From a phage: a stretch of DNA of 64,000 nt. The notes beneath the pieces are model-generated. The model saw nothing but the letters and a program-made list of their open reading frames with translations, was not told where the DNA came from and made no database searches. Position 1 is the first letter of the stretch. The number at the start of each line of letters is the position of its first letter. Both the position numbers and the translations under genes were made by a program. Where the stretch lies: the NCBI GenBank assembly GCA_012225525.1, contig GCA_012225525.1_3923.1, one strand, 5' to 3'. Of this stretch, positions 8,858-58,943 are shown piece by piece.

Positions 8858-8936
8858 TCCCTTGTTGACTGATTGTTAAGATGGTGTTAATATTCTTTAT
8901 GGGTATTCTCACCATCTTGGCTGATGAGGTGATTAA

Positions 8937-9131
8937 ATGCCTACAATCCTAGCAATTCTTCTAAAAAATCTAGGTAGCTTCTTCTGGAAACTCATTTTAT
9001 CCCTTCTAAGTGAATACATGATTGAGAAAGTGTTCTTTAAGCTTGCAAGATACCTTGCGAGTAAAACAGATACACCTATTGATGATGAGTTCGTAGATAA
9101 CTTAGAAAAAGCTTTTAAGGGGGAGAAATAA
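8937..9131 (+). CDS. small membrane protein
   Basis: 64 aa, hydrophobic N-terminal segment (ILAILLKNLGSFFWKLILSLL). Confidence 0.35.
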   Translation: MPTILAILLKNLGSFFWKLILSLLSEYMIEKVFFKLARYLASKTDTPIDDEFVDNLEKAFKGEK

Positions 9132-9503
9132 ATGAAGTGGCTAGAGGAAGCTTTTAAAAATAATATTGGTGCAATTGTAGTTGGTATTTTTAGTGTTATT
9201 GGGATGTATACCACTATGCAAGTCTCAAGTGGTAAGCAGGAAGTGTCTGTCACAACAAAGTTACAGCAGCTAGATAATTATTCCAAAAGTAACTATTCAG
9301 CTATTCGTGATTTACAGTCTGACATGAGATTGATTCAGCTAGGGATGGAGAACCAGAAAGTTCAGTTAGAGAATGTTAAGGGTGAAAACGCAAAACTTAC
9401 CAAAACCCTTGATAAATTCTCTGACAGTGTGAACAATCTGGCTCAATCAGTATCAGCCTTGCAAGCTATTACTGAAAAGAACACAAAGAATACTGAAAAA
9501 TAA
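9132..9503 (+). CDS. membrane-anchored coiled-coil protein
   Basis: 123 aa, one N-terminal TM helix (IGAIVVGIFSVIGMY) then Q/L/N-rich heptad-like region; followed by a terminator. Confidence 0.4.
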   Translation: MKWLEEAFKNNIGAIVVGIFSVIGMYTTMQVSSGKQEVSVTTKLQQLDNYSKSNYSAIRDLQSDMRLIQLGMENQKVQLENVKGENAKLTKTLDKFSDSVNNLAQSVSALQAITEKNTKNTEK

Positions 9504-9510
9504 AATTTAA

Positions 9511-9536
9511 GGCTCCCGTAAAAAGGAGCCTTTTTT
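9511..9536 (+). terminator. intrinsic terminator between convergent operons
   Basis: GGCTCC-cgtaaaaa-GGAGCC hairpin followed by TTTTTTGTTTTTT. Confidence 0.7.
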
Positions 9537-9541
9537 GTTTT

Positions 9542-10441
9542 TTACTTACCTACTGACAGAGGTGCTTCAATCTTCCCTGCATGTTGGTAGTTGTTAATAC
9601 CACCAATAAAATCACTTGCAGTAAGATGTTTCAGGTCACTCAGGGTGTTAAGCTGTACACCAATCTCAAAAGTAGGTGCATGGAACTCTTCATTGTTCAT
9701 CAGTTCATAAACCTGTTTCATATGGTTCTGATAAATCTGAGTATCTCCAAAGACACCTATCAAGTACCGTGGAGTGTATCCAGTCATCTTACAAAGAACT
9801 TCTAAGATGAAACCATAAGACGCAATATTAAACGGAAGTCCTAAAAAGGTGTCTACTGAACGTTGATACCACTGTAAGTCAACTTCACCCTCATTAGTGA
9901 TATAAATCTGAAACAGAACATGACAAGGTGCTAAAGCCATTGAGTTTGCTGCAATATCTGCTGCATTCCAAGCATTAACAAGCATGTAACGGTCTGTGAT
10001 ATCACCCTTCATCTTCGTTACTAAGGTCTCTAGCTGGTCTACAACACAACCATTATGACCTTCAAAGTTTCTCCACTGAACCCCATAGATTCTCCCACCT
10101 GCATCTTCTAACCAATCTTGTTCAGAAGAATAATTAGAACTTAACCAGCGTTTAAAATCATCTGACCAGATAGTCCAGCGTTCCCCATCATTTTCACCCC
10201 AAGTGCGATAACGGAGTTCACCAAGCTTATTCTCGCCGTTCAGGAACCATAAAGCTTCCCCAATAACTTGCCGTGTAAACACCTGTTTAGATGTTAAGAG
10301 CGGGAAACCAGTCCTCATATCAAAACGAAACTGAGGTGGAGCAAAAGCAGAGATAACATCTCCAGTTCGTGTAGTACGCAGTTCACCAACGGATAAAACA
10401 TGGTTCAGGATATTTTTGTAACTTGTATCTGCTTGTGACAT
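9542..10441 (-). CDS. thyA: thymidylate synthase
   Basis: 299 aa; contains LAPCH active-site cysteine context typical of ThyA; adjacent to DHFR. Confidence 0.8.
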   Translation of the reverse strand: MSQADTSYKNILNHVLSVGELRTTRTGDVISAFAPPQFRFDMRTGFPLLTSKQVFTRQVIGEALWFLNGENKLGELRYRTWGENDGERWTIWSDDFKRWLSSNYSSEQDWLEDAGGRIYGVQWRNFEGHNGCVVDQLETLVTKMKGDITDRYMLVNAWNAADIAANSMALAPCHVLFQIYITNEGEVDLQWYQRSVDTFLGLPFNIASYGFILEVLCKMTGYTPRYLIGVFGDTQIYQNHMKQVYELMNNEEFHAPTFEIGVQLNTLSDLKHLTASDFIGGINNYQHAGKIEAPLSVGK

Positions 10442-10442
10442 A

Positions 10443-10988
10443 TCAAAAGTGTCCTTTTACTTGTGGAACATAAATTTCAAAAGTTGCTTTACCATCCTCT
10501 GATGGTTTTGACTGTACCTTTGTAAACACACGGTTATCATACAGCTTCTCAAAGAAGTTTTCAAAAGGTAAATGCACAGTGGCCTCTTCAGTAACTTTAT
10601 GGAAAACAGTATGGAACACCACACTAGCATACGGTAAAGCATTGACAAGGATACCTGCACCACCAATTACAAAGACATCTTCATCAATAGAGCTATCAAG
10701 ATACTTCAAAAATGCTCCAAATGACTCTTTACTGGCTTTAGCATACATTACATCATCTTTGCCAAAGTCTATACCTAAGTATGGTACAGAATTTGTTAAG
10801 ATGAGGTTTGCACGTTCTGGTAAAGGTTTACTACCCAGAGTCTTAAAAGTCTCATTACCCATGACTACTAAGTTATTTTTAGTGAGTCTCTTAAACTCTT
10901 GCATGTCCTGTTTATGTCGAGGCCACGGCATACCAGTCGGTGTACCAAACTCCCCATTTTCACCACTTGCAAAGATTAATTTAATCAT
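10443..10988 (-). CDS. frd: dihydrofolate reductase
   Basis: 181 aa; N-terminal IFA..NG.FG and VIGGAGI glycine-rich NADPH-binding motif; coupled to thyA. Confidence 0.7.
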   Translation of the reverse strand: MIKLIFASGENGEFGTPTGMPWPRHKQDMQEFKRLTKNNLVVMGNETFKTLGSKPLPERANLILTNSVPYLGIDFGKDDVMYAKASKESFGAFLKYLDSSIDEDVFVIGGAGILVNALPYASVVFHTVFHKVTEEATVHLPFENFFEKLYDNRVFTKVQSKPSEDGKATFEIYVPQVKGHF

Positions 10989-11245
10989 TTTGTAAACCCT
11001 TTCTTAATGAACCAGTTGATAACATTCTTCACAGCTTTATTGCTATGGTAGATTAAGTGTGGTGTAGGTTGGTATGAACCATAAGCCCAGAAAGCAATGA
11101 TTTCATTACACTCTGTACACCTTGTACTCTCTTCAGCGATATGACCGTTGACTATTTCACTTACCTCGCCTTGCAAGTCTGTACAACCACAATGTGGACA
11201 TCGGATAGGTGTTCCATCAGACTCATAGCAGTGTTCAATTTTCAT
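10985..11245 (-). CDS. small zinc-ribbon protein
   Basis: 86 aa with CPHCGC ... CTEC cysteine pairs. Confidence 0.45.
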   Translation of the reverse strand: MKIEHCYESDGTPIRCPHCGCTDLQGEVSEIVNGHIAEESTRCTECNEIIAFWAYGSYQPTPHLIYHSNKAVKNVINWFIKKGFTK

Positions 11246-11761
11246 CTATTTAACCTCAAAAACTGGTTCAAGAACCAATATAAAGTCTACACAGTCATCT
11301 TCTTCATCCAGAATACCATCAAAGTTCTTAGGAACGAAGTCGAAGAGGCTCATCACAAAACAGTCAGAAGTAACCTTTATAGTTCCTCCCATGTTCTCTA
11401 CAGTTAACACTGTACGACTTTCTTTTACCTCCCTCAGAAGATTACCCACAAAGTCATCTAAGAAGTACTTCATCAATGACTTGAAACCTTTAGGGTAATC
11501 TGTACCAGAGTATGTTTCAATCTGAGGTACAAGCTTAACATTTATACTAGTCTTTGTTAAGAATGCACTAGAGAACATACTATCAGGTAGCTTACAAACA
11601 GTCTTTCCAGTACCTTCATGTTCAATCTCAACAAAACCAGCTTCATCGCCACATGTAACTATTTTAAAAGATGCTTCATTCTCATACTGTGAAGCCATAA
11701 ACTTTTTAAGCATCTCTTTAAGGAAGTCTGCATGAGCATCTTGTAAGAAGATATCAATCAT
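11246..11761 (-). CDS. hypothetical protein
   Basis: 171 aa ORF in co-directional operon. Confidence 0.45.
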   Translation of the reverse strand: MIDIFLQDAHADFLKEMLKKFMASQYENEASFKIVTCGDEAGFVEIEHEGTGKTVCKLPDSMFSSAFLTKTSINVKLVPQIETYSGTDYPKGFKSLMKYFLDDFVGNLLREVKESRTVLTVENMGGTIKVTSDCFVMSLFDFVPKNFDGILDEEDDCVDFILVLEPVFEVK

Positions 11762-21075: not shown

Positions 21076-21331
21076 TTTTACTCCCTCTAAAATCATTAAC
21101 CTCATACATTACTGCAAAAAATTATAAAAAGCAAGTTGACAATGTACTTGACAAGGTGTTAATCTTTGCGAAGTGGGTTTTACTTAAAAGGTTACTTAAC
21201 AGTTTAACTATACAGATACTTTAAAACTCTTAAAAGATTATTTAATAGCTTTTAAAAAGCTTTAAAGTATAACGTATAGAATACGTTAAGATAAAAGATT
21301 AAAACTTAATAGTTACTTAAAAGAGGCTTAC

Positions 21332-51827: not shown

Positions 51828-52124
51828 ATGAAATTACCAAATAAAGTTCGTGAAAATCTAAGCAAATTACTCAACAAAATTGATTTCATTGAAACATCAA
51901 GAAATAGCCATGATGTTATGGAATGGTTACACGGCAAAATAAAAGGTCGTCGTGTAGTGATTTGCTTATGGAATAGTTGCAGGGAGTATAAAAAACCTGT
52001 ATTGCAAGTTAATATCTATGATGATACTCTTAAAAGTCCTGTCAAATCTAAAAGCGATTTACTAGATTCTTATGAGATAACTGTAAATGGCAAAGTGTCA
52101 CGTAAAGAGGAAGCACCATGTTAA
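51828..52124 (+). CDS. small early-type protein 3
   Basis: 98 aa behind a type-1 cassette. Confidence 0.6.
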   Translation: MKLPNKVRENLSKLLNKIDFIETSRNSHDVMEWLHGKIKGRRVVICLWNSCREYKKPVLQVNIYDDTLKSPVKSKSDLLDSYEITVNGKVSRKEEAPC

Positions 52125-52450
52125 TGACTGGTATCACTGCAATCATTGCCATTTTCGCGCTCTATAAGGCATATAAAGCCTATAATCTAGCAAATAAGGC
52201 AATTACACAACAGGTTAGCAATAACCTTGTAATGAGCTTTCTAGAGCGGTTGAGCGATGAACAATTAAAGCGGTTAGAAATGAGCTTCAGATTCAGGGCG
52301 AGAACTTATCAAATCAGCGACATTTTCAAAGATGATTTTCAATTAGTCGATGATTATAATTCTCTGATAAATGCTTTAAATATTAGTGACTTAAAAGACT
52401 ATCATACTGTAATTGTTCAAGAGTTGAGCAAACGAAAACAAAACTGTTGA
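52118..52450 (+). CDS. small membrane protein 4
   Basis: 110 aa, N-terminal TM helix (TGITAIIAIFALY); overlaps previous stop. Confidence 0.5.
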   Translation: MLMTGITAIIAIFALYKAYKAYNLANKAITQQVSNNLVMSFLERLSDEQLKRLEMSFRFRARTYQISDIFKDDFQLVDDYNSLINALNISDLKDYHTVIVQELSKRKQNC

Positions 52451-52540
52451 CACTGGTTTTTAGATAGATTAAATTACACATCAACGGGGAGGGAATGACC
52501 TTCCCCACTAAATAAAGTCCTTAAACTAGGAGATTCTAAA
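52447..52540 (+). promoter_or_regulatory. type-2 intergenic cassette (promoter TTGACA-17-TAAATT, GC hairpin, conserved RBS leader)
   Basis: TTGACActggtttttagatagatTAAATTacacatcaacGGGGAGGGAATGACCTTCCCCactaaataaagtccttaaactaGGAGAttctaaaATG; related copies at 53310, 54556, 55462, 56057, 56389. Confidence 0.7.
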
Positions 52541-52813
52541 ATGTATACTACTAACAATGGCCGCACTTTGAACGTCACACTACGTCACTATGTAGATGGT
52601 GTCATGCACTTTGAAGATTTACAAGCTGAACAACATATCTTAGATTGGCAAGTCGCAGGACTCCAAAAAACTGCTACGGGATACGGTAAAAAGATTCCAA
52701 CTAGTTGGAAAGTTCACTATGAAGGACGTTTGCGCAGAATTTATCAAGATGTGCAAAGCAATAGTGCATCGAGTTACATTATAGTAAAAGGTAAAAAACT
52801 GCATTTAGTGTAA
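52541..52813 (+). CDS. small early-type protein 5
   Basis: 90 aa behind a type-2 cassette. Confidence 0.6.
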   Translation: MYTTNNGRTLNVTLRHYVDGVMHFEDLQAEQHILDWQVAGLQKTATGYGKKIPTSWKVHYEGRLRRIYQDVQSNSASSYIIVKGKKLHLV

Positions 52814-52896
52814 AGTACTTTACAGGGGGTTATCAAGCTGATAAGATAGCCCCAGATAAAGAGCTTTACCACTAATCCTAAATTGGAGATTCAAAA

Positions 52897-53301
52897 ATGG
52901 CTATCAATAATCGTGAATTATCAATCTTAAAAGCACGTTTGACCGTTAATCGAATCAATGTTATCACGTCATCAGCACCGGATGAAACATTGCACAACAT
53001 TATCGGAAAGATTCAAAGCGTTATCTTAGACGTTGAAAACGTAAAAAGTTCATTGGCTGACGTTGCAGCAGGTATCACGCTAGACGGTGCGCAATATGAA
53101 ATGGCTGACATGTTAGGCAAATCAAAGGTAATGAATAAAGAACTTGATTTAAAAATGTTTCGATTTGCCGTGAAAGTATGGCTATCCGTCGAGTATGACG
53201 CTAATTTTGCAATCGCTGATTTCTTCGCCACTTGGTTGCAACGTAATTTGACAAATCATGATTTTCGTGACATCTGCGACGCAATTTATGCAGAACTCTA
53301 A
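52897..53301 (+). CDS. small early-type protein 6
   Basis: 134 aa behind a type-1 cassette. Confidence 0.6.
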   Translation: MAINNRELSILKARLTVNRINVITSSAPDETLHNIIGKIQSVILDVENVKSSLADVAAGITLDGAQYEMADMLGKSKVMNKELDLKMFRFAVKVWLSVEYDANFAIADFFATWLQRNLTNHDFRDICDAIYAEL

Positions 53302-53402
53302 AAATTTTATTGACACTGATTTTTAGATAGATTAAATTACACATCAACGGGGAGGGAATGACCTTCCCCACTAAGTAAAGTCCTTAAACTAGGAGATTCA
53401 AA

Positions 53403-53600
53403 ATGGCTATTATCAACGGTTTAACCATTGAAACCACGCACATCAAAGACATTAAAGTTGGTGATGTAGTTCTTTCCCACGGCGTAGAAAAAACAGTCAC
53501 TGCAAAGGATATCAAAGATGATTCTTTCATGGGTAGAACTCTCTTCGGTGATTCTTATTGCTTAGGTTATCTTGCAGTTTTAAAAGTTGTCAAAAATTAA
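53403..53600 (+). CDS. small early-type protein 7
   Basis: 65 aa behind a type-2 cassette with TTGACA-17-TAAATT promoter at 53310-53338. Confidence 0.55.
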   Translation: MAIINGLTIETTHIKDIKVGDVVLSHGVEKTVTAKDIKDDSFMGRTLFGDSYCLGYLAVLKVVKN

Positions 53601-53693
53601 CTGATAAAGTACTTTACAAGGGGCTTATAGTTCGATAAAGTAAGCCCCAGATAAAGAGCTTTACCACTAAATCCTTAAACTAGGAGATTCAAA

Positions 53694-54236
53694 ATGAAAT
53701 GCTTTCACGGTACTACTCAAGAAAACTTTATCAACCTGATTAATAACGGTGATAAACCATCAGGTGTATGGAATTGTTCGGATATGGACGGCAATTTTTA
53801 CGTGTACCCAGAAAATAAACTCTATGGTGATGATGAGGAAGAGATAGCATCGGAAGGTATCCAGCAAGCTCTAGGAAATGCCACTATCACGGCAGCTTTT
53901 CAGATGAAAACTCAAAATATTGTTATCTTAGAACTTGACATTCCAGAGGATGAGCTAAATGATGATTATTCTTGTGATAACATGTCAAATATAGCAAGCT
54001 TTACAGAGTACTTTGATGTAAATTGGATTAAAAAGGTCTATACAACAGAGTTCAACGCTATGTATTCACCTTTTTGTCTCCCTTCACTGGATAACCCAAA
54101 TTTAAATTATCTTGATGAAACATTGGAGCTACTTGCTAAAAGTATCCAACAATCCGACAGTATTCAGGTTTTTTGTGACATCATGGATACACTGACAGAA
54201 AACATTGTAGAGAGTGATTTAAAGGTCTTTTTCTAA
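53694..54236 (+). CDS. acidic protein 8
   Basis: 180 aa, rich in Asp/Glu (DDEEEI, IPEDELNDDYSCDNM); behind a type-1 cassette. Confidence 0.6.
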   Translation: MKCFHGTTQENFINLINNGDKPSGVWNCSDMDGNFYVYPENKLYGDDEEEIASEGIQQALGNATITAAFQMKTQNIVILELDIPEDELNDDYSCDNMSNIASFTEYFDVNWIKKVYTTEFNAMYSPFCLPSLDNPNLNYLDETLELLAKSIQQSDSIQVFCDIMDTLTENIVESDLKVFF

Positions 54237-54302
54237 AAACCTATACATTCACCTTATAAACACTGATTAACCCCTTACAGGGGCTTTTAGAGGGCTTAAA
54301 TC

Positions 54303-54536
54303 ATGCTTACAACCATTTATCTCATCCTTTCCATTTGTAACGGCCATTCATGTGACTTTAAAGGGCTTGAAGAGTTTACAGGAAGTAAAGAAAATGCTAT
54401 TCAAGTTTGCCAGATAGCAAGACAAGACTACCCCGCCAGTGATGATATACAATGTTACTTTAAGACAGAAGATGACGAAGGAATCTATTTCGACAGTGTC
54501 GATGGTCAATATGAAATTATCATTGAAAAAGACTAG
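54303..54536 (+). CDS. small acidic protein 9
   Basis: 77 aa; own short leader with a GGGGCTTTTAGAGGGCTT stretch upstream. Confidence 0.5.
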   Translation: MLTTIYLILSICNGHSCDFKGLEEFTGSKENAIQVCQIARQDYPASDDIQCYFKTEDDEGIYFDSVDGQYEIIIEKD

Positions 54537-54629
54537 ACAAGCCTGATAAAAGTCTGTAAATTATCAATCAACGGGGAGGGAATGACCTTCCCCACTAAGT
54601 AAAGTCCTTAAACTAGGAGATTCCAAAAA

Positions 54630-54878
54630 ATGTATACTAAAACTCAACTAAAAAACATGGTTAGCAATGGCTTAATGGATGAAGTCTATAAAGAGTGTAG
54701 ACGCTACGGGGAAATTAAGGATAAGACTAGTTATGAGTATACCCACACAATAGACTTTAAAACCAATGAGAAGAGGACTGACCTTGTTACTGTAGTAGTG
54801 ATTGAGTATAAACGAATTATTTGGACCTTTGAGCTAGTAAAAGGTGAGTGCACAGAGATAGAATATAAAGACGCTTAA
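54630..54878 (+). CDS. small early-type protein 10
   Basis: 82 aa behind a type-2 cassette. Confidence 0.6.
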   Translation: MYTKTQLKNMVSNGLMDEVYKECRRYGEIKDKTSYEYTHTIDFKTNEKRTDLVTVVVIEYKRIIWTFELVKGECTEIEYKDA

Positions 54879-54963
54879 AGTACTTTACATGGGGCTTATT
54901 AGTCTGTATAGTAAGCCCCAGATAAAGAGCTTTACCACTCAATCCTAAACTGGAGATTCTAAA

Positions 54964-55305
54964 ATGGCTTATGTAACCGTAATTACCGATAAAGCTGGCT
55001 CATCTTGGTCAACTCAAGTAAGTGATAAGATGTCACCTATGCAGTGCCTAAAATACTTTGAACAGTGGAACAAAGGCGAGGGTGTAAGCCCCTTTCAAGT
55101 GATGCAAATCATCCATACAGATAACGAAGGGAATAAAACGACCTTGAACAGTGAATACTACGCAAGCCGTTTTGAAACGAGAAGTAAAACAATGAAGCTT
55201 TTACGTGAATCCGGTTATGCACATATTGCCGCTTTAATCTGGGATGACCTGCTAAAAAGTCAGCGTATCAGCTATGTAAAACCTGAAAAAATATTCATCA
55301 GTTAA
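54964..55305 (+). CDS. small early-type protein 11
   Basis: 113 aa behind a type-1 cassette. Confidence 0.6.
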   Translation: MAYVTVITDKAGSSWSTQVSDKMSPMQCLKYFEQWNKGEGVSPFQVMQIIHTDNEGNKTTLNSEYYASRFETRSKTMKLLRESGYAHIAALIWDDLLKSQRISYVKPEKIFIS

Positions 55306-55433
55306 TCAATAACTTATAAAAAACTTTTAAAAAAGTGTTGACAATACCCATTGACATTGGTAACTTTGTTCGAGGGGGTTATCTAAAAGGGATTCACTTA
55401 ATAGATTCTTTATAGATAAACTTAAAAAATTGC

Positions 55434-55462
55434 TTGCAAAGGCAAATCAAAACAAGTATAGT
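55434..55462 (+). promoter_or_regulatory. sigma70-like promoter
   Basis: TTGCAA, 17-nt spacer, TATAGT, just upstream of a type-2 hairpin/RBS leader; further TTGACA motifs at 55338 and 55351. Confidence 0.55.
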
Positions 55463-55526
55463 ACTAATCAACGGGGAGGGAATGACCTTCCCCACTAAGT
55501 AAAGTCCTTAAACTAGGAGATTCAAA

Positions 55527-56057
55527 ATGAACAAGTTTCAAGCTATCAACTACATTCGCTCATCTAACGTTATGACTAAACCCGTTAAAGATACCTTCGA
55601 ATTTCGTTGCAACGGTGTACACTTTGCAACTATCACTAAATCAGAAAACGGGGCTTATTATATACATCGTCGTAATGTTTCTACTGTTGTAGTATCTCAC
55701 TTTATGCAAGCTGTAGCAGAACTGTTACCGCTATTCTTAGGTATTTACTTAGATGAGTGTAAAAACGTTCGCAACCACGTTAAAGACCTTTTAAATGGTT
55801 ATAAAATGGCTTATGAACGTTCTATCAAGAATCTTAACAAGTTCTATAAAGCCCCTGAAAACACCGTATCAATAGCTTATGATGTAAGCGGTGAAATGGT
55901 CAACCTCTCCAATGTAGAACAAATTGGCCTTTATGATTTACGTCCTAGCGGTTATTCTAAGACTCTCGGTGAAGGCTTATCCTTCAATATCAAGAACTTA
56001 GAAAAAACTTTAAAAGATATTGAAAAAGATATTGACGAGACAATCAAAAGTCTGTAA
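55527..56057 (+). CDS. early-type protein 12
   Basis: 176 aa behind a type-2 cassette. Confidence 0.6.
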   Translation: MNKFQAINYIRSSNVMTKPVKDTFEFRCNGVHFATITKSENGAYYIHRRNVSTVVVSHFMQAVAELLPLFLGIYLDECKNVRNHVKDLLNGYKMAYERSIKNLNKFYKAPENTVSIAYDVSGEMVNLSNVEQIGLYDLRPSGYSKTLGEGLSFNIKNLEKTLKDIEKDIDETIKSL

Positions 56058-56124
56058 ATTGTCAATCAACGGGGAGGGATTAACCTTCCCACTAAGTAAA
56101 GTCCTTAAACTAGGAGATTCAAAA

Positions 56125-56388
56125 ATGGAAAACGTAGAATTAACCACACTTTTACAAATTGCAACCGACAAAGAAGATGTAGCATTATTCCACCGTATCG
56201 AAAGCGATTTGTTCAATGGTGAAATCATTAAAGAATCTTACGAAGTTGTCGGATTCAAAGATGGTAAAGCATTTGGCTTTTTTGACCTCGACAAAAGCAA
56301 AGCGGTTACAATGTACGATGTTCTATCTTGTGAAATTCTGACAAAATACAACGAAAAAAGGCTTGCAACCTACGCCAATATGCAGTAA
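56125..56388 (+). CDS. small early-type protein 13
   Basis: Start at ATG 56125 (MENVELTT...) after conserved leader; the ORF-track start at 56020 reads through the cassette and is unlikely. Confidence 0.55.
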   Translation: MENVELTTLLQIATDKEDVALFHRIESDLFNGEIIKESYEVVGFKDGKAFGFFDLDKSKAVTMYDVLSCEILTKYNEKRLATYANMQ

Positions 56389-56455
56389 ATTACTAATCAA
56401 CGGGGAGGGAATGACCTTCCCACTAAACAAAGTCCTAAACTGGAGAATCTAAATT

Positions 56456-56704
56456 ATGTCAACTATCCGCGTAACTGTTAATGCTTATGGCTGCCACCAA
56501 CTTGATGCAAAATTCGATATCGGTGGAACAGATAACACCTTTGACCTTATCAAAATGCTGATTCAGCAGGTGATACCAGATTATAACCCTACTGATGACT
56601 TCTGGAAAGATGCCGTAAAAGAAGCCATAAACGAGGAATCTCACTACCATTATTGGGGTGACTTGATTATCTCTCTGTACTACAGCAAACAAGGTTACAA
56701 CTAA
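56456..56704 (+). CDS. small early-type protein 14
   Basis: 82 aa behind a variant type-2 cassette. Confidence 0.55.
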   Translation: MSTIRVTVNAYGCHQLDAKFDIGGTDNTFDLIKMLIQQVIPDYNPTDDFWKDAVKEAINEESHYHYWGDLIISLYYSKQGYN

Positions 56705-56712
56705 TCGACGCA

Positions 56713-56770
56713 ACGGGGCTAAATAGCCCCAGATACCTGAAAAGCTCCTTCTCATAGGGGCTTTTTTACG
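56713..56770 (+). terminator. putative terminator at end of small-gene array
   Basis: GGGGCTaaatAGCCCC hairpin, then CATAGGGGCTTTTTTACG. Confidence 0.45.
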
Positions 56771-58340
56771 TCTATAAAGAGACTCTATACAATCCCTTTC
56801 CTTTCCTTCCTAGAATCTATCCCGTACCTTAAAAGCAATAACTCTATAGGTTATTCTATAGCCCCTTATCAAATCAACTTAAATAAAAGCCAATAACCCC
56901 AGAAAGGGGATGGCCCATTAAAACGCTCTATAAAGCTCTATAACAGCCTTATCAACCTAACTTAAGCAATCATATTAACCCACTCTAAAAAGCCCTTTAT
57001 AGAGCTTCCCAGAGCCTTAAAAGAATCTTATAAGGGTGTAAGTTTATAGGCTGGCTAGTATCTTGTGAATAACTAAACAATCCCCTTGATAGTCACTAAA
57101 AAGCATGTTATAGGGGGTATAAAGTTACTTCAAAGTAACGTAAAAAAGGCTATAAAGTTACGTAAATGCTAGCCCCCTTAACATTTTCTTAACAATTTCT
57201 TAACAATCCCTACATAGTTATGCTTGTTAGCCCCTTGTTAAATCTCTGTTAAGACCACGTAAAAGCCTTGTAAGAGTCTTTGACATAGCCTTAAAAGCTC
57301 CTGTAAAGCCCTATAAAGAGGTGTCTGTATAGTTGGGGTGTAATTACTAGGAAGAGACTTAAAAGAGCTTACAAGGAGCTATAGAGAGCTTTTAAGAGGT
57401 ATGTTTAAGAGTTCACTAAGAAAGGAAGGGAACGATAAGAAAAGAGATAGTGACCATGTTAATAGCTTGTTAAAAAGATTAAACACTTGTTAGGAACTTG
57501 TTAATTATCTTAATTGGTATTGTTACCAATCCCTACAAAATAACTCTTTAAAATTAACTTGTTAGCTCTTGTTAGTCATCTGTTAAGCCTCTGTAAAGAC
57601 TATTCAGCACTTGTTAGAAAACTGTTAAGCCCTTGTTAGTTCTGTTAAGAAACTGTTAAGACCTTTGAAGAGATGTTAAGAGCTTGAGAGAGTTGTTAAG
57701 AGATTGTTAAGGATATTTTAAAATTTTGCAAAGTACTTGTAAGGGAGCTGTTAAGGGCTACCAAGCAGATATACATCTTCTACAGATATTTTTCAGTCCC
57801 TTCAAAGACCCTAAAAAATGACTTGATAGTCCTATTTTATAAAAATTTTAAAATTCTGAATAATTACCTAGACAGTCTTTTAAAAATACAGGTAGAAACA
57901 GGCTTATAAGATACCTTGTTAGTACCGTGTTAGACCTTGTGAGATAAGGTCTGTAAAGATATTCCTGTTAAGTTTGTTAAAACAGTCTATATAGAGGCTT
58001 AGTAGTGCCTAGTGAACACCTATAGAGGGTAACATAGCTAACCTAGAGATTAAGAGGTGTATAGGAGCTTCTAAGAGGGTGTAGAGAGATGGTTAAGGTG
58101 ATTGTATAGGTTGTTAAGAAGGCTTGTTAGAAGAGTGTTTAGAAGGGCTATACAGAGGGGCTATTAAGACCACTAGATAGATACTAAGATACTATATAGT
58201 ACTATATAACTATATAGAGAGTAAGATTAAGAAGGTTGTTAAGAAGGGTAGATATTTTATTCACATATGATGGTGACCCAGCGGTTGGGACAACCGATAA
58301 ATTTTATAAAAATTAAAAAGCCCCCGATTAAGGAGGCTCT
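56770..58340. repeat. 1.6 kb ORF-free region dense in short degenerate direct repeats (CTATAAAG/CTATAGAG family, then TGTTAAG/TGTTAG family)
   Basis: No ORF of 60 aa or more on either strand; at least 12 exact TGTTAAG plus many TGTTAG/TGTAAAG variants clustered at 57200-58260; CTATAAAG/CTATAGAG words at 56770-57420; lies between convergently transcribed blocks. Confidence 0.8.
58314..58340 (-). terminator. putative terminator (minus strand)
   Basis: On the minus strand GAGCCTCC...GGGGGCTT hairpin followed by TTTTTAATTTTT. Confidence 0.4.
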
Positions 58341-58349
58341 TAAGATATT

Positions 58350-58943
58350 TTAAATCAGTGTTTCCAGAACTGTTTTCAATGATGACTTGGTTGTCTGATA
58401 AAAATGAGTAAATCCATTGTTATTATCGAATACCTGCATCATGATATCATCTCCCTTGATTGGGTACACTCGGATATCATAGTGAAAACCATTAAAGACA
58501 CAAGAGCCATTACAGAATGCACTAAAGTCATCCACTGAGATATACTCTTCATGTCCTGTGATTTTTATACAAACACCTTTACTCGGTCTCTTAGGGTTGA
58601 TATCTTCCATCACAGACATACTCTGTCCACCAAGAGACACCATAGTGACCACTTTACGGTTCTTCTGTTTAAAGTACATCTTAACTTTCTGCAAAGTGTC
58701 TTCATAGAACGGATAAGACTTCTCTACAAATATTCCTTCAAGTGGCTCTTTACCATTTTCAACTTCTCTGGTATGTCGTACTGCAAAGATAATTTGTTGG
58801 AACCAGTCAAGATTTTCTTCGGAGAGTGCTTCTCGAACATCACTCCAGTCAAGGACTAGATAGTTACCTTCAACTTCTTTTAAGTTATCTTTTTCCATAT
58901 CTATCACACCATTATCGTAAAACTTGATATTCTGGTACTGCAA
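58350..58943 (-). CDS. hypothetical protein
   Basis: 197 aa ORF, last gene of minus-strand block. Confidence 0.5.
   Translation of the reverse strand: MQYQNIKFYDNGVIDMEKDNLKEVEGNYLVLDWSDVREALSEENLDWFQQIIFAVRHTREVENGKEPLEGIFVEKSYPFYEDTLQKVKMYFKQKNRKVVTMVSLGGQSMSVMEDINPKRPSKGVCIKITGHEEYISVDDFSAFCNGSCVFNGFHYDIRVYPIKGDDIMMQVFDNNNGFTHFYQTTKSSLKTVLETLI

Follow-up and report, generated by a model that had tools for sequence, protein, structure and literature searches.

A gene-free gap in a Felix O1-like phage as the probable junction of its chromosome ends, with helically phased short words in the terminal repeat

The longest gene-free stretch in the phage DNA analyzed here (64,000 nucleotides, referred to as the window) is very probably the concatemer junction of a myovirus from the Felix O1-like group (Felixounavirus). 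The junction would comprise the two virion DNA ends, a direct terminal repeat (DTR) of about 591 bp, and unique noncoding flanks of about 400 and 580 bp. The positions of the ends and of the repeat are supported through homology to relatives in which they have been mapped, and the terminal repeat as a feature is therefore already known. Three further features appear to go beyond the literature searched, namely the helically phased short words within the repeat, the inverted CCCTTAACA motif at its boundaries, and the higher conservation of the words than of their spacers together with a shared layout in an Erwinia phage.

Results

Judged by sequence comparison, the 64 kb window is a Felixounavirus (Felix O1-like) genome. 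The gap region has 92% identity to phage wV8 and matches in 256 phage records. A six-frame scan found no ORF of at least 60 aa between 56756 and 58349 (1594 bp), where the longest ORF is 35 aa, and the runner-up among ORF-free intervals in the window measures only 392 bp. This confirms the original prediction, made from the sequence alone, that the gap is the sole long stretch without ORFs. Homologues of Felix O1 ORF23 and ORF24 flank the gap in every annotated relative, and the same gap is found in Mooglevirus and Suspvirus. Scanning the whole window for tRNA and tmRNA genes gave none, and the gap is not discussed in the genome papers of Felix O1, wV8 and VpaE1.

The DTR is present as a single copy at 57172-57762, recognized by homology to the annotated DTRs of relatives, and only one copy lies in the window because assemblies collapse the two virion copies. 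The Pr103Blw DTR (positions 1-581, the same at both ends of the record) aligns over its full length to 57172-57762 with 89% identity, and the two sequences agree perfectly over the first 12 and the last 14 bases. The 618 bp 'DTR' feature of UAB_69 aligns to 57170-57764. By homology, the physical ends would thus lie at about 57170-57172 on the left and 57762-57764 on the right, the PhageTerm-derived and run-off-derived boundaries being 2 nt apart on each side. At least seven records (Ro111lw, H12, NBEco005, SPJ41, ZX4221, NBSal004 and Pr103Blw) start at the base equivalent to 57172, i.e., fixed, non-permuted ends are common to independent isolates. Three of these records also carry exact duplications of their prefix as suffix (Ro111lw 613 bp, NBEco005 651 bp, Pr103Blw 581 bp), which start with GCCCCCTTAACA and end with TGTTAAGGGCTACC, the same as in the window. 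The boundaries are constant while the length ranges from 581 to 651 bp among relatives, and the repeat measures 591 bp here because its number of 11 bp word units differs from theirs. The suggestion that the gap is a genome terminus, terminal-repeat boundary or packaging region is therefore borne out by the DTR homology, the shared record starts and the exact end duplications, and the alignment with related phages that had been proposed as a check shows 57172-57762 matching their annotated DTRs from end to end.

Other Felix O1-like DTRs (Felixounavirus and other Ounavirinae) are homologous to the repeat in the window, with 83-93% identity over the whole repeat. They have identical boundaries, the same position between ORF23 and ORF24 and the same word layout, and nothing essential differs. 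In UAB_Phi87, a 608 bp DTR has been mapped by Bal31 digestion, which degraded two defined fragments, and by run-off sequencing, whereas UAB_Phi20 in the same paper is a headful phage (PMC4837284). The UAB_Phi87 terminase falls among DTR-type terminases (PMC4837284), and the 581 bp DTR of Pr103Blw was called with PhageTerm (PMC8303462). The terminase genes are located outside the window; in phage H12, the terminase is about 16.5 kb from the left end. The two other packaging signals considered for the gap do not agree with these data. A cos site is contradicted by the duplications of 581-651 bp that relatives carry at both ends and by a heat test in UAB_Phi87 that excluded cohesive termini (PMC4837284). 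Permuted ends, as a headful pac site would give, do not agree with the identical exact ends of independent records. For annotation, this means that the true chromosome ends are probably located here, that genomes of this group are best opened at about 57172, and that the window likely derives from a circularly joined or collapsed assembly.

The genes and terminators on both sides are consistent with this arrangement. The last gene of the right arm, taken from the ORF list and its translation, is the ORF23 homologue (56456-56704, + strand, 82 aa). Homologous CDSs are annotated in wV8, Felix O1 and Barry, and the protein belongs to PHROG 4559, a class without assigned function, with no Pfam or PDB match. 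Downstream of it, a hairpin at 56715-56730 precedes the right-arm intrinsic terminator at 56739-56769 (+ strand), which folds at -28.3 kcal/mol (z = -5.46) as a stem followed by UUUUUU; the annotations of Barry and Moogle also have a terminator at the homologous position. On the other side of the gap, the first left-arm gene is the ORF24 homologue (58350-58898, - strand, 182 aa from ATG), which is transcribed toward the end. It falls in PHROG 4330, likewise a class without assigned function, and has no Pfam family and no meaningful PDB match. The left-arm intrinsic terminator at 58316-58341 (- strand; -14.5 kcal/mol, z = -3.28, followed by a U-run) was picked up by a pattern scan and is annotated as a terminator in wV8. 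With a strong hairpin and U-run terminator on each side, the gap lies at the 3' ends of both gene blocks, as had been claimed. The description of these blocks as convergent holds for the circular or concatemer form and not for the virion, where they lie at opposite linear ends. Since the gap is in all likelihood the terminal-repeat junction, the convergent units would be the two genome arms running to the chromosome ends.

The original prediction also described dozens of repeated short words in the gap, and this description survives a comparison with 2000 dinucleotide-preserving shuffles of 56770-58340. TGTTAAG occurs 12 times on the + strand compared to 0.32 +/- 0.55 in the shuffles (maximum 3), a 37-fold excess, and from its density elsewhere in the window 0.35 copies would be expected in a stretch of this size. 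Similar excesses were found for TGTTA[AG] (26 vs 1.95), CT[ATG]TA[AG]AG (9 vs 0.68) and TATAGAG (5 vs 0.46), and none of the shuffles attained any observed count. The zoning of the words holds as well: CTATAAAG and CTATAGAG are mostly found left of about 57400, the TGTTAAG/TGTTAG array spans 57225-57755, and TATAGAG/TATATAG words occupy 57987-58217.

Within the DTR, about 23 forward TGT(T/A)A(A/G) words follow the helical period of 10.5 bp, accompanied by three inverted copies at the left edge. As many as 77% of the neighbor spacings are at most 1.25 bp off a multiple of 10.5, compared to 23% under random placement (0/5000 placements), and the Rayleigh R for the 10.5 bp period is 0.62. Conservation was examined in a MAFFT alignment of trimmed sequences from 11 phages of three genera. 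In this alignment, 82% of the word columns are invariant compared to 51% of the other DTR columns (0/5000 random placements). The indels among relatives are 11 bp one-word units, and helical phase is therefore kept. With respect to AA/TT periodicity at 10-11 bp, the repeat ranks among the top 1% of the window, but neighboring early-gene intergenic repeats reach equal scores, and intrinsic curvature was therefore set aside. A literature search for TGTTAAG together with terminal repeats gave nothing relevant, and in the literature searched, published descriptions of Felix O1-like DTRs give the repeat length alone, with no internal phased word array.

The gap as a whole is better conserved than its flanking genes. 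From left to right, 56770-57171 is unique conserved noncoding DNA by word map and alignment, and in the virion would directly adjoin the right-hand DTR copy on its inner side. Its words are CTATAAAG, CTCTATA and CTTAAAAG, and 34-72% of the columns per 50 bp bin are invariant in the 11 phages, compared to 32% in the adjacent coding bin. The outlier is the bin at 57100-57149 (18%), and the bin at 57150 straddles the DTR boundary. The boundary motif CCCTTAACA is located at 57175-57183 (+ strand), 3-5 nt inside the left end, with its inverted partner at 57749-57757. The 64 kb window contains three copies (0.65 expected), two of which are these oppositely oriented copies at the DTR edges, and the bases around the motif are near-invariant in three genera. 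A perfectly symmetric cut model based on the inverted TAGCCC..TTAACA was tried and rejected, as the offsets differ by 2-4 nt with the boundary set and Erwinia phage M7 has a weaker version of the motif.

The three inverted words, which read CTTAACA on the + strand, lie at 57177-57207 (- strand) with an exact period of 11 bp, at +7, +18 and +29 from the left end. Tandem Repeats Finder reports them as period 11 with 2.8 copies and 95% match, and they occupy identical positions in Ro111lw, NBEco005 and Pr103Blw. The first forward group at 57223-57331 (+ strand) includes CTTGTTAG, TTGTTAA, CTGTTAAG, TTGTAAG, CTTAAAAG, CTGTAAAG, CTATAAAG and CTGTATAG, with spacings of 9-22 bp that are mostly 11 and its multiples. 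It is within this group that relatives have gained or lost one 11 bp unit (CTTGTTAGAGA). Four TGTTA(A/G) words follow at 57457-57505 (+ strand), spaced by 11, 20 and 11 bp. The block that holds them, GTGACCATGTTAATAG.TTGTTAAA, is invariant in all columns but one across the three genera, and 78% of the columns in the 50 bp bin at 57450 are invariant. A 22 bp palindrome-bearing unit, AATTGGTATTGTTACCAATCCC, has its one exact copy in the window at 57512-57533. This unit is relocated in other phages, to about 57560 in UAB_Phi87, UAB_69 and SUSP2 and to about 57607 in heid, and it also occurs in the left unique part of SUSP2.

The densest part of the repeat is an array of 13 forward words (TGTTAAG, TGTTAG or TGTAAAG) at 57558-57711 (+ strand), spaced by 9-11 or 20 bp. 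Here, the words are invariant and the spacers variable in the alignment, and this segment is the only one for which blastn reaches into Erwinia, Hafnia and Pectobacterium phages. It is followed at 57712-57733 by a core, GATATTTTAAAATTTTGCAAAG, which contains the palindrome ATTTTAAAAT, lies about 30 bp inside the right end and is near-invariant in the three genera. The repeat closes at 57738-57762 (+ strand) with two final words and its right boundary, TGTAAGGGAGCTGTTAAGGGCTACC. Here, GGGCTACCAAGCAGATATACA is invariant in 11/11 aligned phages and the TGTTAA before it differs in one; the exact duplications of Pr103Blw, Ro111lw and NBEco005 finish on ...GGGCTACC. Finally, by alignment and word map, 57763-58340 is unique conserved noncoding DNA, which in the virion would adjoin the DTR copy at the left end. 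This segment has 95-96% identity among Felixounaviruses and 75-80% to Mooglevirus and Suspvirus, and contains an AT-rich block (57830-57870), TGTTAG/TGTTAAG words at 57915-57980 and 58112-58243, and the TATAGAG/TATATAG words of the third zone.

Discussion

Felix O1-like phages are widely used in typing and biocontrol of Salmonella and E. coli. To our knowledge, little is understood of concatemer recognition and cutting in myoviruses with short exact repeats, and we know of neither the recognition sites nor the recognition protein in Felix O1-like phages. On our analysis, the words most likely mark a protein-binding platform for end cutting and packaging. We give an even chance to a specific form of this, in which the approximately 23 forward and three inverted TGTTA(A/G)-type words on one helix face are candidate sites for a phage protein that positions the boundary cuts, followed by T7-style completion of the repeat. 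The protein might most plausibly be the recognition subunit of the terminase or an accessory factor. By coating or wrapping the repeat, the putative binder could position cuts at the two boundaries, each with its inverted CCCTTAACA. Opposite-strand nicks about 591 bp apart and strand-displacement synthesis would then leave every genome that is packaged with the complete repeat, along the lines of the classical T7 scheme. Accessory parts of this one cis-acting signal might be the word arrays on either side, and each flanking gene block would be a genome arm that is transcribed outward to the chromosome end and halted by its intrinsic terminator.

A more elaborate version of this proposal is put forward tentatively, at somewhat less than an even chance. 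The DTR would be a platform of about 590 bp with approximately 26 phased candidate sites, including the three inverted ones at the left edge and with CCCTTAACA inverted at the boundaries, bound by one dedicated protein in a single wrapped complex that defines both cuts. Such an undescribed architecture would be kept in at least four Ounavirinae genera and evolve by 11 bp one-site modules. The proteins encoded next to the gap were considered as binders of the words and rejected, as they have no Pfam family, belong to PHROGs without assigned function and show no meaningful PDB match; searches of Pfam, PHROG and PDB recognized no DNA-binding domain in the genes adjoining the gap. The phase-locked words shared across genera and the inverted boundary motif are nevertheless concrete, mutable candidates for a packaging signal, and might be used in transducing or packaging vectors, for which the T7 junction is a precedent.

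The T7/T3 concatemer junction has flanking short-repeat arrays usually named SRL and SRR, and we know of no T7-type RNA polymerase encoded by Felix O1-like phages. The likeness to the window consists of a short exact repeat in a noncoding junction with heptamer arrays inside and flanking it. However, there is no homology, and DTR blastn returned Ounavirinae-type records and three others, one of them Staphylococcus-named, and no T7 or T3 record. The T7 repeat (NC_001604) is 160 bp rather than 591 bp, with CCTAAAG found 13 times inside and beside it. The spacing is 13 bp, while TGTTAAG in the window is spaced by 10.5-11 bp, and T7 has neither inverted copies at the left edge nor an inverted boundary motif. 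T7 is also a podovirus, while the Felix O1-like phages are myoviruses. The window is thus an analogue and not a member of the T7-type junctions, as word, spacing and orientation pattern all differ. The T7 junction is a cis-acting packaging signal according to Chung and Hinkle (1990), as cited in PMC13236587, and T7's own RNA polymerase pauses there during junction processing (PMC3276506). At most sites near the T7 genome ends, which hold comparable short-repeat arrays, insertions were scored as nonessential (bioRxiv 10.1101/2024.10.10.617714), and conservation of the words therefore need not mean that they are required for packaging.

Short helically phased sites that flank a terminase cut are also found as the R sites of lambda cosB, the hexamers of P1 pac and the pacL/pacR boxes of SPP1. 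In these systems, a single cut region gives rise to cohesive ends or to headful, permuted genomes, whereas the window would have two fixed cuts about 591 bp apart, exact repeats and far more sites (approximately 26).

A different role for the words is unlikely but the best of the alternatives to a terminase platform. The words might bind a protein carried in the virion or supplied by the host, which protects the ends against RecBCD, makes DNA entry pause, or silences or organizes the ends. Read inward, both virion ends would open with an identical pattern of CCCTTAACA and words, and the high AA/TT periodicity of the repeat and the detection of Felix O1 gp23, the homologue of the right-end gene product, in the virion proteome (PMC3185647) fit such a role. 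So does the T5 terminal repeat, whose large untranslated region is dense in repeats and palindromes, is conserved in relatives and may, as has been proposed, stop injection by means of DnaA boxes (bioRxiv 10.1101/866236). However, the T5 repeat is about 10 kb, contains genes and eight DnaA boxes and is linked to two-step injection, whereas the window has only two weak DnaA-like boxes, both outside the repeat, and two-step injection is without evidence in the Felix O1-like group. A role of this kind is also compatible with one in packaging. We know of no host nucleoid-protein consensus that the words fit.

The DnaA-like boxes are also relevant to replication, as the gap had been suggested as a candidate origin, a suggestion for which we found no evidence there. 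The phased words would then act like iterons, binding an initiator beside an AT-rich unwinding element, and the gap would start replication, possibly in addition to its other role. We regard this as improbable. The features that resemble an iteron origin are the strong phasing of repeated sites, the AT-rich block just right of the repeat, and two partly conserved TTATTCACA boxes, which fit the relaxed DnaA box TTATNCACA and lie at 57064 (- strand) and 58257 (+ strand). The literature searched also reports no mapped origin for this phage group. However, a 6-8 bp word at a pitch of 10-11 bp differs from iterons of 17-22 bp. The box at 57064 is invariant in its TGTGAA core only, and the box at 58257 is one base short in four of the eight phages shown in the alignment. 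No initiator gene is recognizable near the gap, and GC skew there merely tracks the coding strand. The words fall exactly within the mapped terminal repeat, and their position is therefore explained without an origin. In addition, the window has an equally good or better candidate at 21106-21331, the divergent low-GC promoter region that separates the DNA polymerase block from the primase-helicase block.

It is very unlikely that the gap encodes noncoding RNAs or micro-peptides with the words as by-products. Tiny ORFs (25-53 aa) are annotated in the gap of UAB_Phi87, UAB_69 and H12, and a weak promoter-like TTGATA/TTGACA at about 57815 and a + strand hairpin at 58282-58296 could belong to a transcript. 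However, the ORFs of the window's gap do not exceed 35 aa, and indels of 11 and 22 bp break the frames between relatives. The hairpin is not kept in Mooglevirus or Suspvirus, and conservation tracks words and not helices. An Rfam scan of 56400-58700 at a permissive threshold gave a sub-threshold Phe_leader alone (24.8 bits against a gathering score of 55), i.e., no credible match. A scan for sigma-70 promoters gave 12 weak matches compared to 6.1 expected, with none above 9/12 inside the gap, and there is therefore no convincing promoter. The earlier option of a noncoding RNA is thus not supported, given the Rfam result and indels that come in 11 bp word units.

The least probable explanation, and one already disfavored, is functionless debris left by replication slippage that amplified an 11 bp unit in DNA without genes: the copy number of the unit does vary among phages, as does the repeat length (581-651 bp), but the words are invariant against diverged spacers in three genera, the gap is better conserved than the adjoining genes, and the layout persists in Erwinia phage M7, where the remaining sequence is no longer alignable. 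M7 has an exact DTR of 444 bp with the same arrangement of inverted words on the left and forward words on the right. Its inverted words are found at +10, +21 and +32, compared to +7, +18 and +29 in the window, and its inverted boundary motif is less clear, while ATTTTGCAAAG is kept 31 bp from the right end. The core block corresponding to 57712-57733 is also present in Pectobacterium phage Arno18.

Genome ends and the terminal repeat

Sequence searches with the region 56770-58340 and its flanks matched 256 phage records, nearly all of them from Felix O1-like myoviruses (Felixounavirus and, at lower identity, Mooglevirus and Suspvirus). Phage wV8 was the top match with 92.4% across the whole 1.7 kb. 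Many of the deposited genomes start at query position 473, which corresponds to window position 57172, or end near 57762. When 57172-57762 was searched alone, the records of Ro111lw, H12, NBEco005 and SPJ41 were also found to start at exactly this base. Exact duplications of the record prefix as suffix are present in Ro111lw (613 bp), NBEco005 (651 bp) and Pr103Blw (581 bp), and all three start with GCCCCCTTAACA and end with TGTTAAGGGCTACC, matching window 57172 and 57762. In Pr103Blw the duplication is annotated as a "short direct terminal repeat region" (positions 1-581 and the last 581 bases, two identical copies), with 89% identity to window 57172-57762 and identical first and last bases, while a feature named "DTR" (direct terminal repeat) in UAB_69 aligns to window 57170-57764. 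The NBEco005 record (MN994499.1) is flagged as circular despite its exact end duplication; the genome is linear and includes the two repeat copies, and its topology is mislabelled.

Experimental mapping is available for close relatives. In UAB_Phi87, two defined restriction fragments were lost on Bal31 digestion, the direct terminal repeat measured 608 bp by run-off sequencing, and no cohesive ends were seen in a heat test (PMC4837284). The 581 bp repeat of Pr103Blw was determined by PhageTerm (PMC8303462), and short terminal repeats had earlier been inferred from DNA size in the Felix O1 genome paper (PMC3185647). Boundaries from PhageTerm and from run-off sequencing lie 2 nt apart at each side. 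Every feature of a Felix O1-type terminal repeat that is testable on the window sequence was found here. Given the mapped and annotated repeats of the relatives and their end duplications, the core of the region is very probably the terminal repeat, collapsed to a single copy, with the ends placed at 57172-57762 (591 bp) by homology. Of the options in the original prediction, the genome terminus or terminal-repeat boundary thus proved right, while a headful pac or a cos site is ruled out by the exact shared ends and duplications. The feature itself, i.e., the terminal repeat and ends of Felix O1-like phages, is already known and annotated in public records.

Setting of the gene-free gap

The interval 56756-58349 (1594 bp), here called the gap, is the longest in the window without an ORF of at least 60 aa in a six-frame scan, and the runner-up measures 392 bp, which bears out its description as the only long ORF-free stretch. 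Its predicted position at the 3' ends of both flanking gene blocks also holds, as there are strong hairpin-plus-U-run terminators at both edges (56739-56769 on the plus strand and 58316-58341 on the minus strand). Homologues of Felix O1 ORF23 and ORF24 bracket a gene-free gap of about 1.65 kb in every annotated relative. In a fully annotated relative opened at the physical end, the repeat is followed by about 600 bp of noncoding DNA and then by genes that are read in the direction of that end; at the opposite end, small genes reach to the final ~470 bp. As judged by these comparisons, the whole gap is the junction at which the two ends of the linear chromosome are joined in a concatemer or circularised assembly. 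The gene closest to the right end (56456-56704, plus strand) encodes an 82 aa product without a recognisable domain, and its homologue gp23 was reported among Felix O1 virion proteins by mass spectrometry (PMC3185647). A small virion protein encoded beside the chromosome end is a possible candidate for DNA-end binding.

A phased and conserved word array

The short words of the gap were counted against 2000 dinucleotide-preserving shuffles of the gap. TGTTAAG occurs 12 times (0.32 +/- 0.55 in shuffles), TGTTA[AG] 26 times (1.95), the CT.TA.AG family nine times (0.68) and TATAGAG five times (0.46), and none of the 2000 shuffles reached the observed count for any of the four. From its density elsewhere in the window, 0.35 copies of TGTTAAG are predicted per gap-sized stretch. 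The claimed word enrichment therefore survives a composition-matched test, and the word map agrees with the three word zones described along the gap; the observation is real and the feature functional.

Within the repeat, the plus strand carries TGT(T/A)A(A/G) as a forward word 23 times, usually after C/T-T (e.g., CTTGTTAG, CTGTTAAG), and three inverted words, CTTAACA, are found at offsets of +7, +18 and +29 relative to the left end. Neighbouring words are spaced by 9-11, 20-22 or 33 bp, plus two long gaps, and 77% of the spacings deviate by no more than 1.25 bp from a multiple of 10.5, compared to 23% for random placement (0/5000). A Rayleigh test across the whole 530 bp gave a peak period of 10.5 bp (R = 0.62), which would put the sites on the same face of the helix. 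The outermost boundary words form an inverted pair of CCCTTAACA at 57175-57183 (plus) and 57749-57757 (minus), a sequence with three copies in 64 kb against 0.65 expected, and a block GATATTTTAAAATTTTGCAAAG lies about 30 bp inward from the right end. The third CCCTTAACA is at 9374 (minus), in the same stretch as a loose cluster of six plus-strand TGTTAAG copies (8874-11555).

The comparative alignment suggested in the original prediction was run on 11 phages from three genera, and both gap and words are conserved across them. The gap is conserved above the adjoining genes (73-78% identity to Moogle versus 61-64% for the flanking ORFs), and its unique part to the right of the repeat (57763-58340) is 95-96% identical within Felixounaviruses. 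Of the repeat columns, 82% are invariant in words and 51% elsewhere, a difference that none of 5000 random placements reached. Both boundaries are near-invariant in the alignment, the left as ...GTTACGTAAA.G.TAGCCCCCTTAACA and the right as TGTTAAGGGCTACCAAGCAGATATACA. Indels in the repeat are mostly 11 bp units of one word each (CTTGTTAGAGA, TTTCTTAACAA), and gain and loss of such modules explains why repeat lengths in the window and its close relatives vary (581, 591, 613, 618 and 651 bp) while both boundaries are fixed. Erwinia phage M7 (Kolesnikvirus) has an exact terminal duplication of 444 bp, of which only ~80 bp is detectable by blastn; inverted TTAACA words lie on its left and forward TGTTAAG at 9-22 bp spacing on its right, and ATTTTGCAAAG is retained 31 bp from the right end. 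In Pectobacterium phage Arno18 the gap keeps the same words and the same core. Fixed words, drifting spacers and phase-keeping indels are the usual signature of protein-binding sites, and this pattern of conservation argues against slippage debris. The phase-locked array, the inverted boundary motif and the cross-genus conservation appear undescribed in the literature searched, which covered few subscription-journal papers.

Possible roles of the array

Phages with exact terminal repeats carry one repeat copy per concatemer junction. The phased words may serve as a platform recognised by a phage protein, for which the terminase recognition subunit or an accessory factor is the most plausible candidate, and we give this terminase reading about an even chance. 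Such a protein would bind cooperatively along one DNA face and set the cuts at both boundaries. Opposite-strand nicks, one at each boundary, and subsequent strand-displacement synthesis would then provide each genome with a full repeat, a step taken from the classical T7 scheme and the geometry of the site; the inverted boundary motif would suit an enzyme nicking the equivalent strand at each boundary.

In architecture only, the T7 junction is the closest mechanistic analogue. T7 (NC_001604) has a 160 bp repeat containing three copies of CCTAAAG, and about a dozen further copies lie next to it, mostly spaced by 13 bp. The word, spacing, orientation pattern and phage RNA polymerase dependence all differ from the window. 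The T7 junction serves T7 phagemids as the cis-acting packaging signal (PMC13236587). A genome-wide insertion screen in T7 found most sites near the ends dispensable, except for two positions at the left repeat's inner edge (bioRxiv 10.1101/2024.10.10.617714), which cautions against presuming that every word is required. The untranslated repeat region of T5 is a looser analogue, built on DnaA boxes and two-step injection (bioRxiv 10.1101/866236).

The words could possibly serve end protection or entry control, which is compatible with a packaging role. A replication origin, as also predicted, has little support. The gap does contain an AT-rich block and two inverted copies of TTATTCACA, which fit the relaxed DnaA-box consensus TTATNCACA, at 57064-57072 (minus) and 58257-58265 (plus), but these flank the repeat from outside, are only partly conserved in relatives (in the first box only TGTGAA is invariant), and no initiator gene is recognisable nearby. 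A better-placed candidate is 21106-21331, which by comparison with phage H12 lies between the divergent DNA polymerase (minus) and primase-helicase (plus) blocks and contains three CTTAAAAG words and TTGACA elements in tandem; it may act as a divergent promoter region or as an origin. Among the ORF-free intervals it ranks fourth in size, and it lies in the lowest-GC kilobase of the window and at a GC-skew switch. That the gap encodes a noncoding RNA, another predicted option, or micro-peptides is unlikely. The longest ORF of the gap in the six-frame scan is 35 aa.

Movable units and related words elsewhere

A 22 bp palindrome-bearing unit, AATTGGTATTGTTACCAATCCC, is present once in the window (57512-57533) and at three other repeat or gap positions in relatives: one shared by UAB_Phi87, UAB_69 and SUSP2, one in heid, and one in the unique part of SUSP2 on the left, as though it were mobile or recurrently duplicated and lost. 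It includes TACCAA, which is also found where the right end is cut (GGGCTACC/AAGC, cut at the slash). A hairpin-bearing unit of ~25 bp, similar in sequence to ATGAGATAGATTCTATCGAATCC, occupies varying gap positions in either orientation, depending on the phage, and looks like a miniature mobile insertion; it was seen in SUSP2 (in the ORF23 terminator loop), heid, UAB_69, Moogle (two sites) and SUSP1, with no match in the window at up to 3 mismatches.

Across the window CTTAAAAG is strand-biased, with 20 copies on the plus and seven on the minus strand. Several plus-strand copies lie in the small-gene block at ~52000-56400 (plus), upstream of the gap, and clusters are also present at ~21.2 kb and 45-52 kb. 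The wV8 annotation lists direct-repeat families of 40-80 bp between the small genes of the matching block, and a 57 bp repeat in Felix O1 contains GGGGCTTAAAAGTCTGTAAAGTAAGCCCC. Within the 64 kb, AA/TT periodicity at 10-11 bp is strongest in windows at 55251-55801. A regulator of these small genes may use the same word family.
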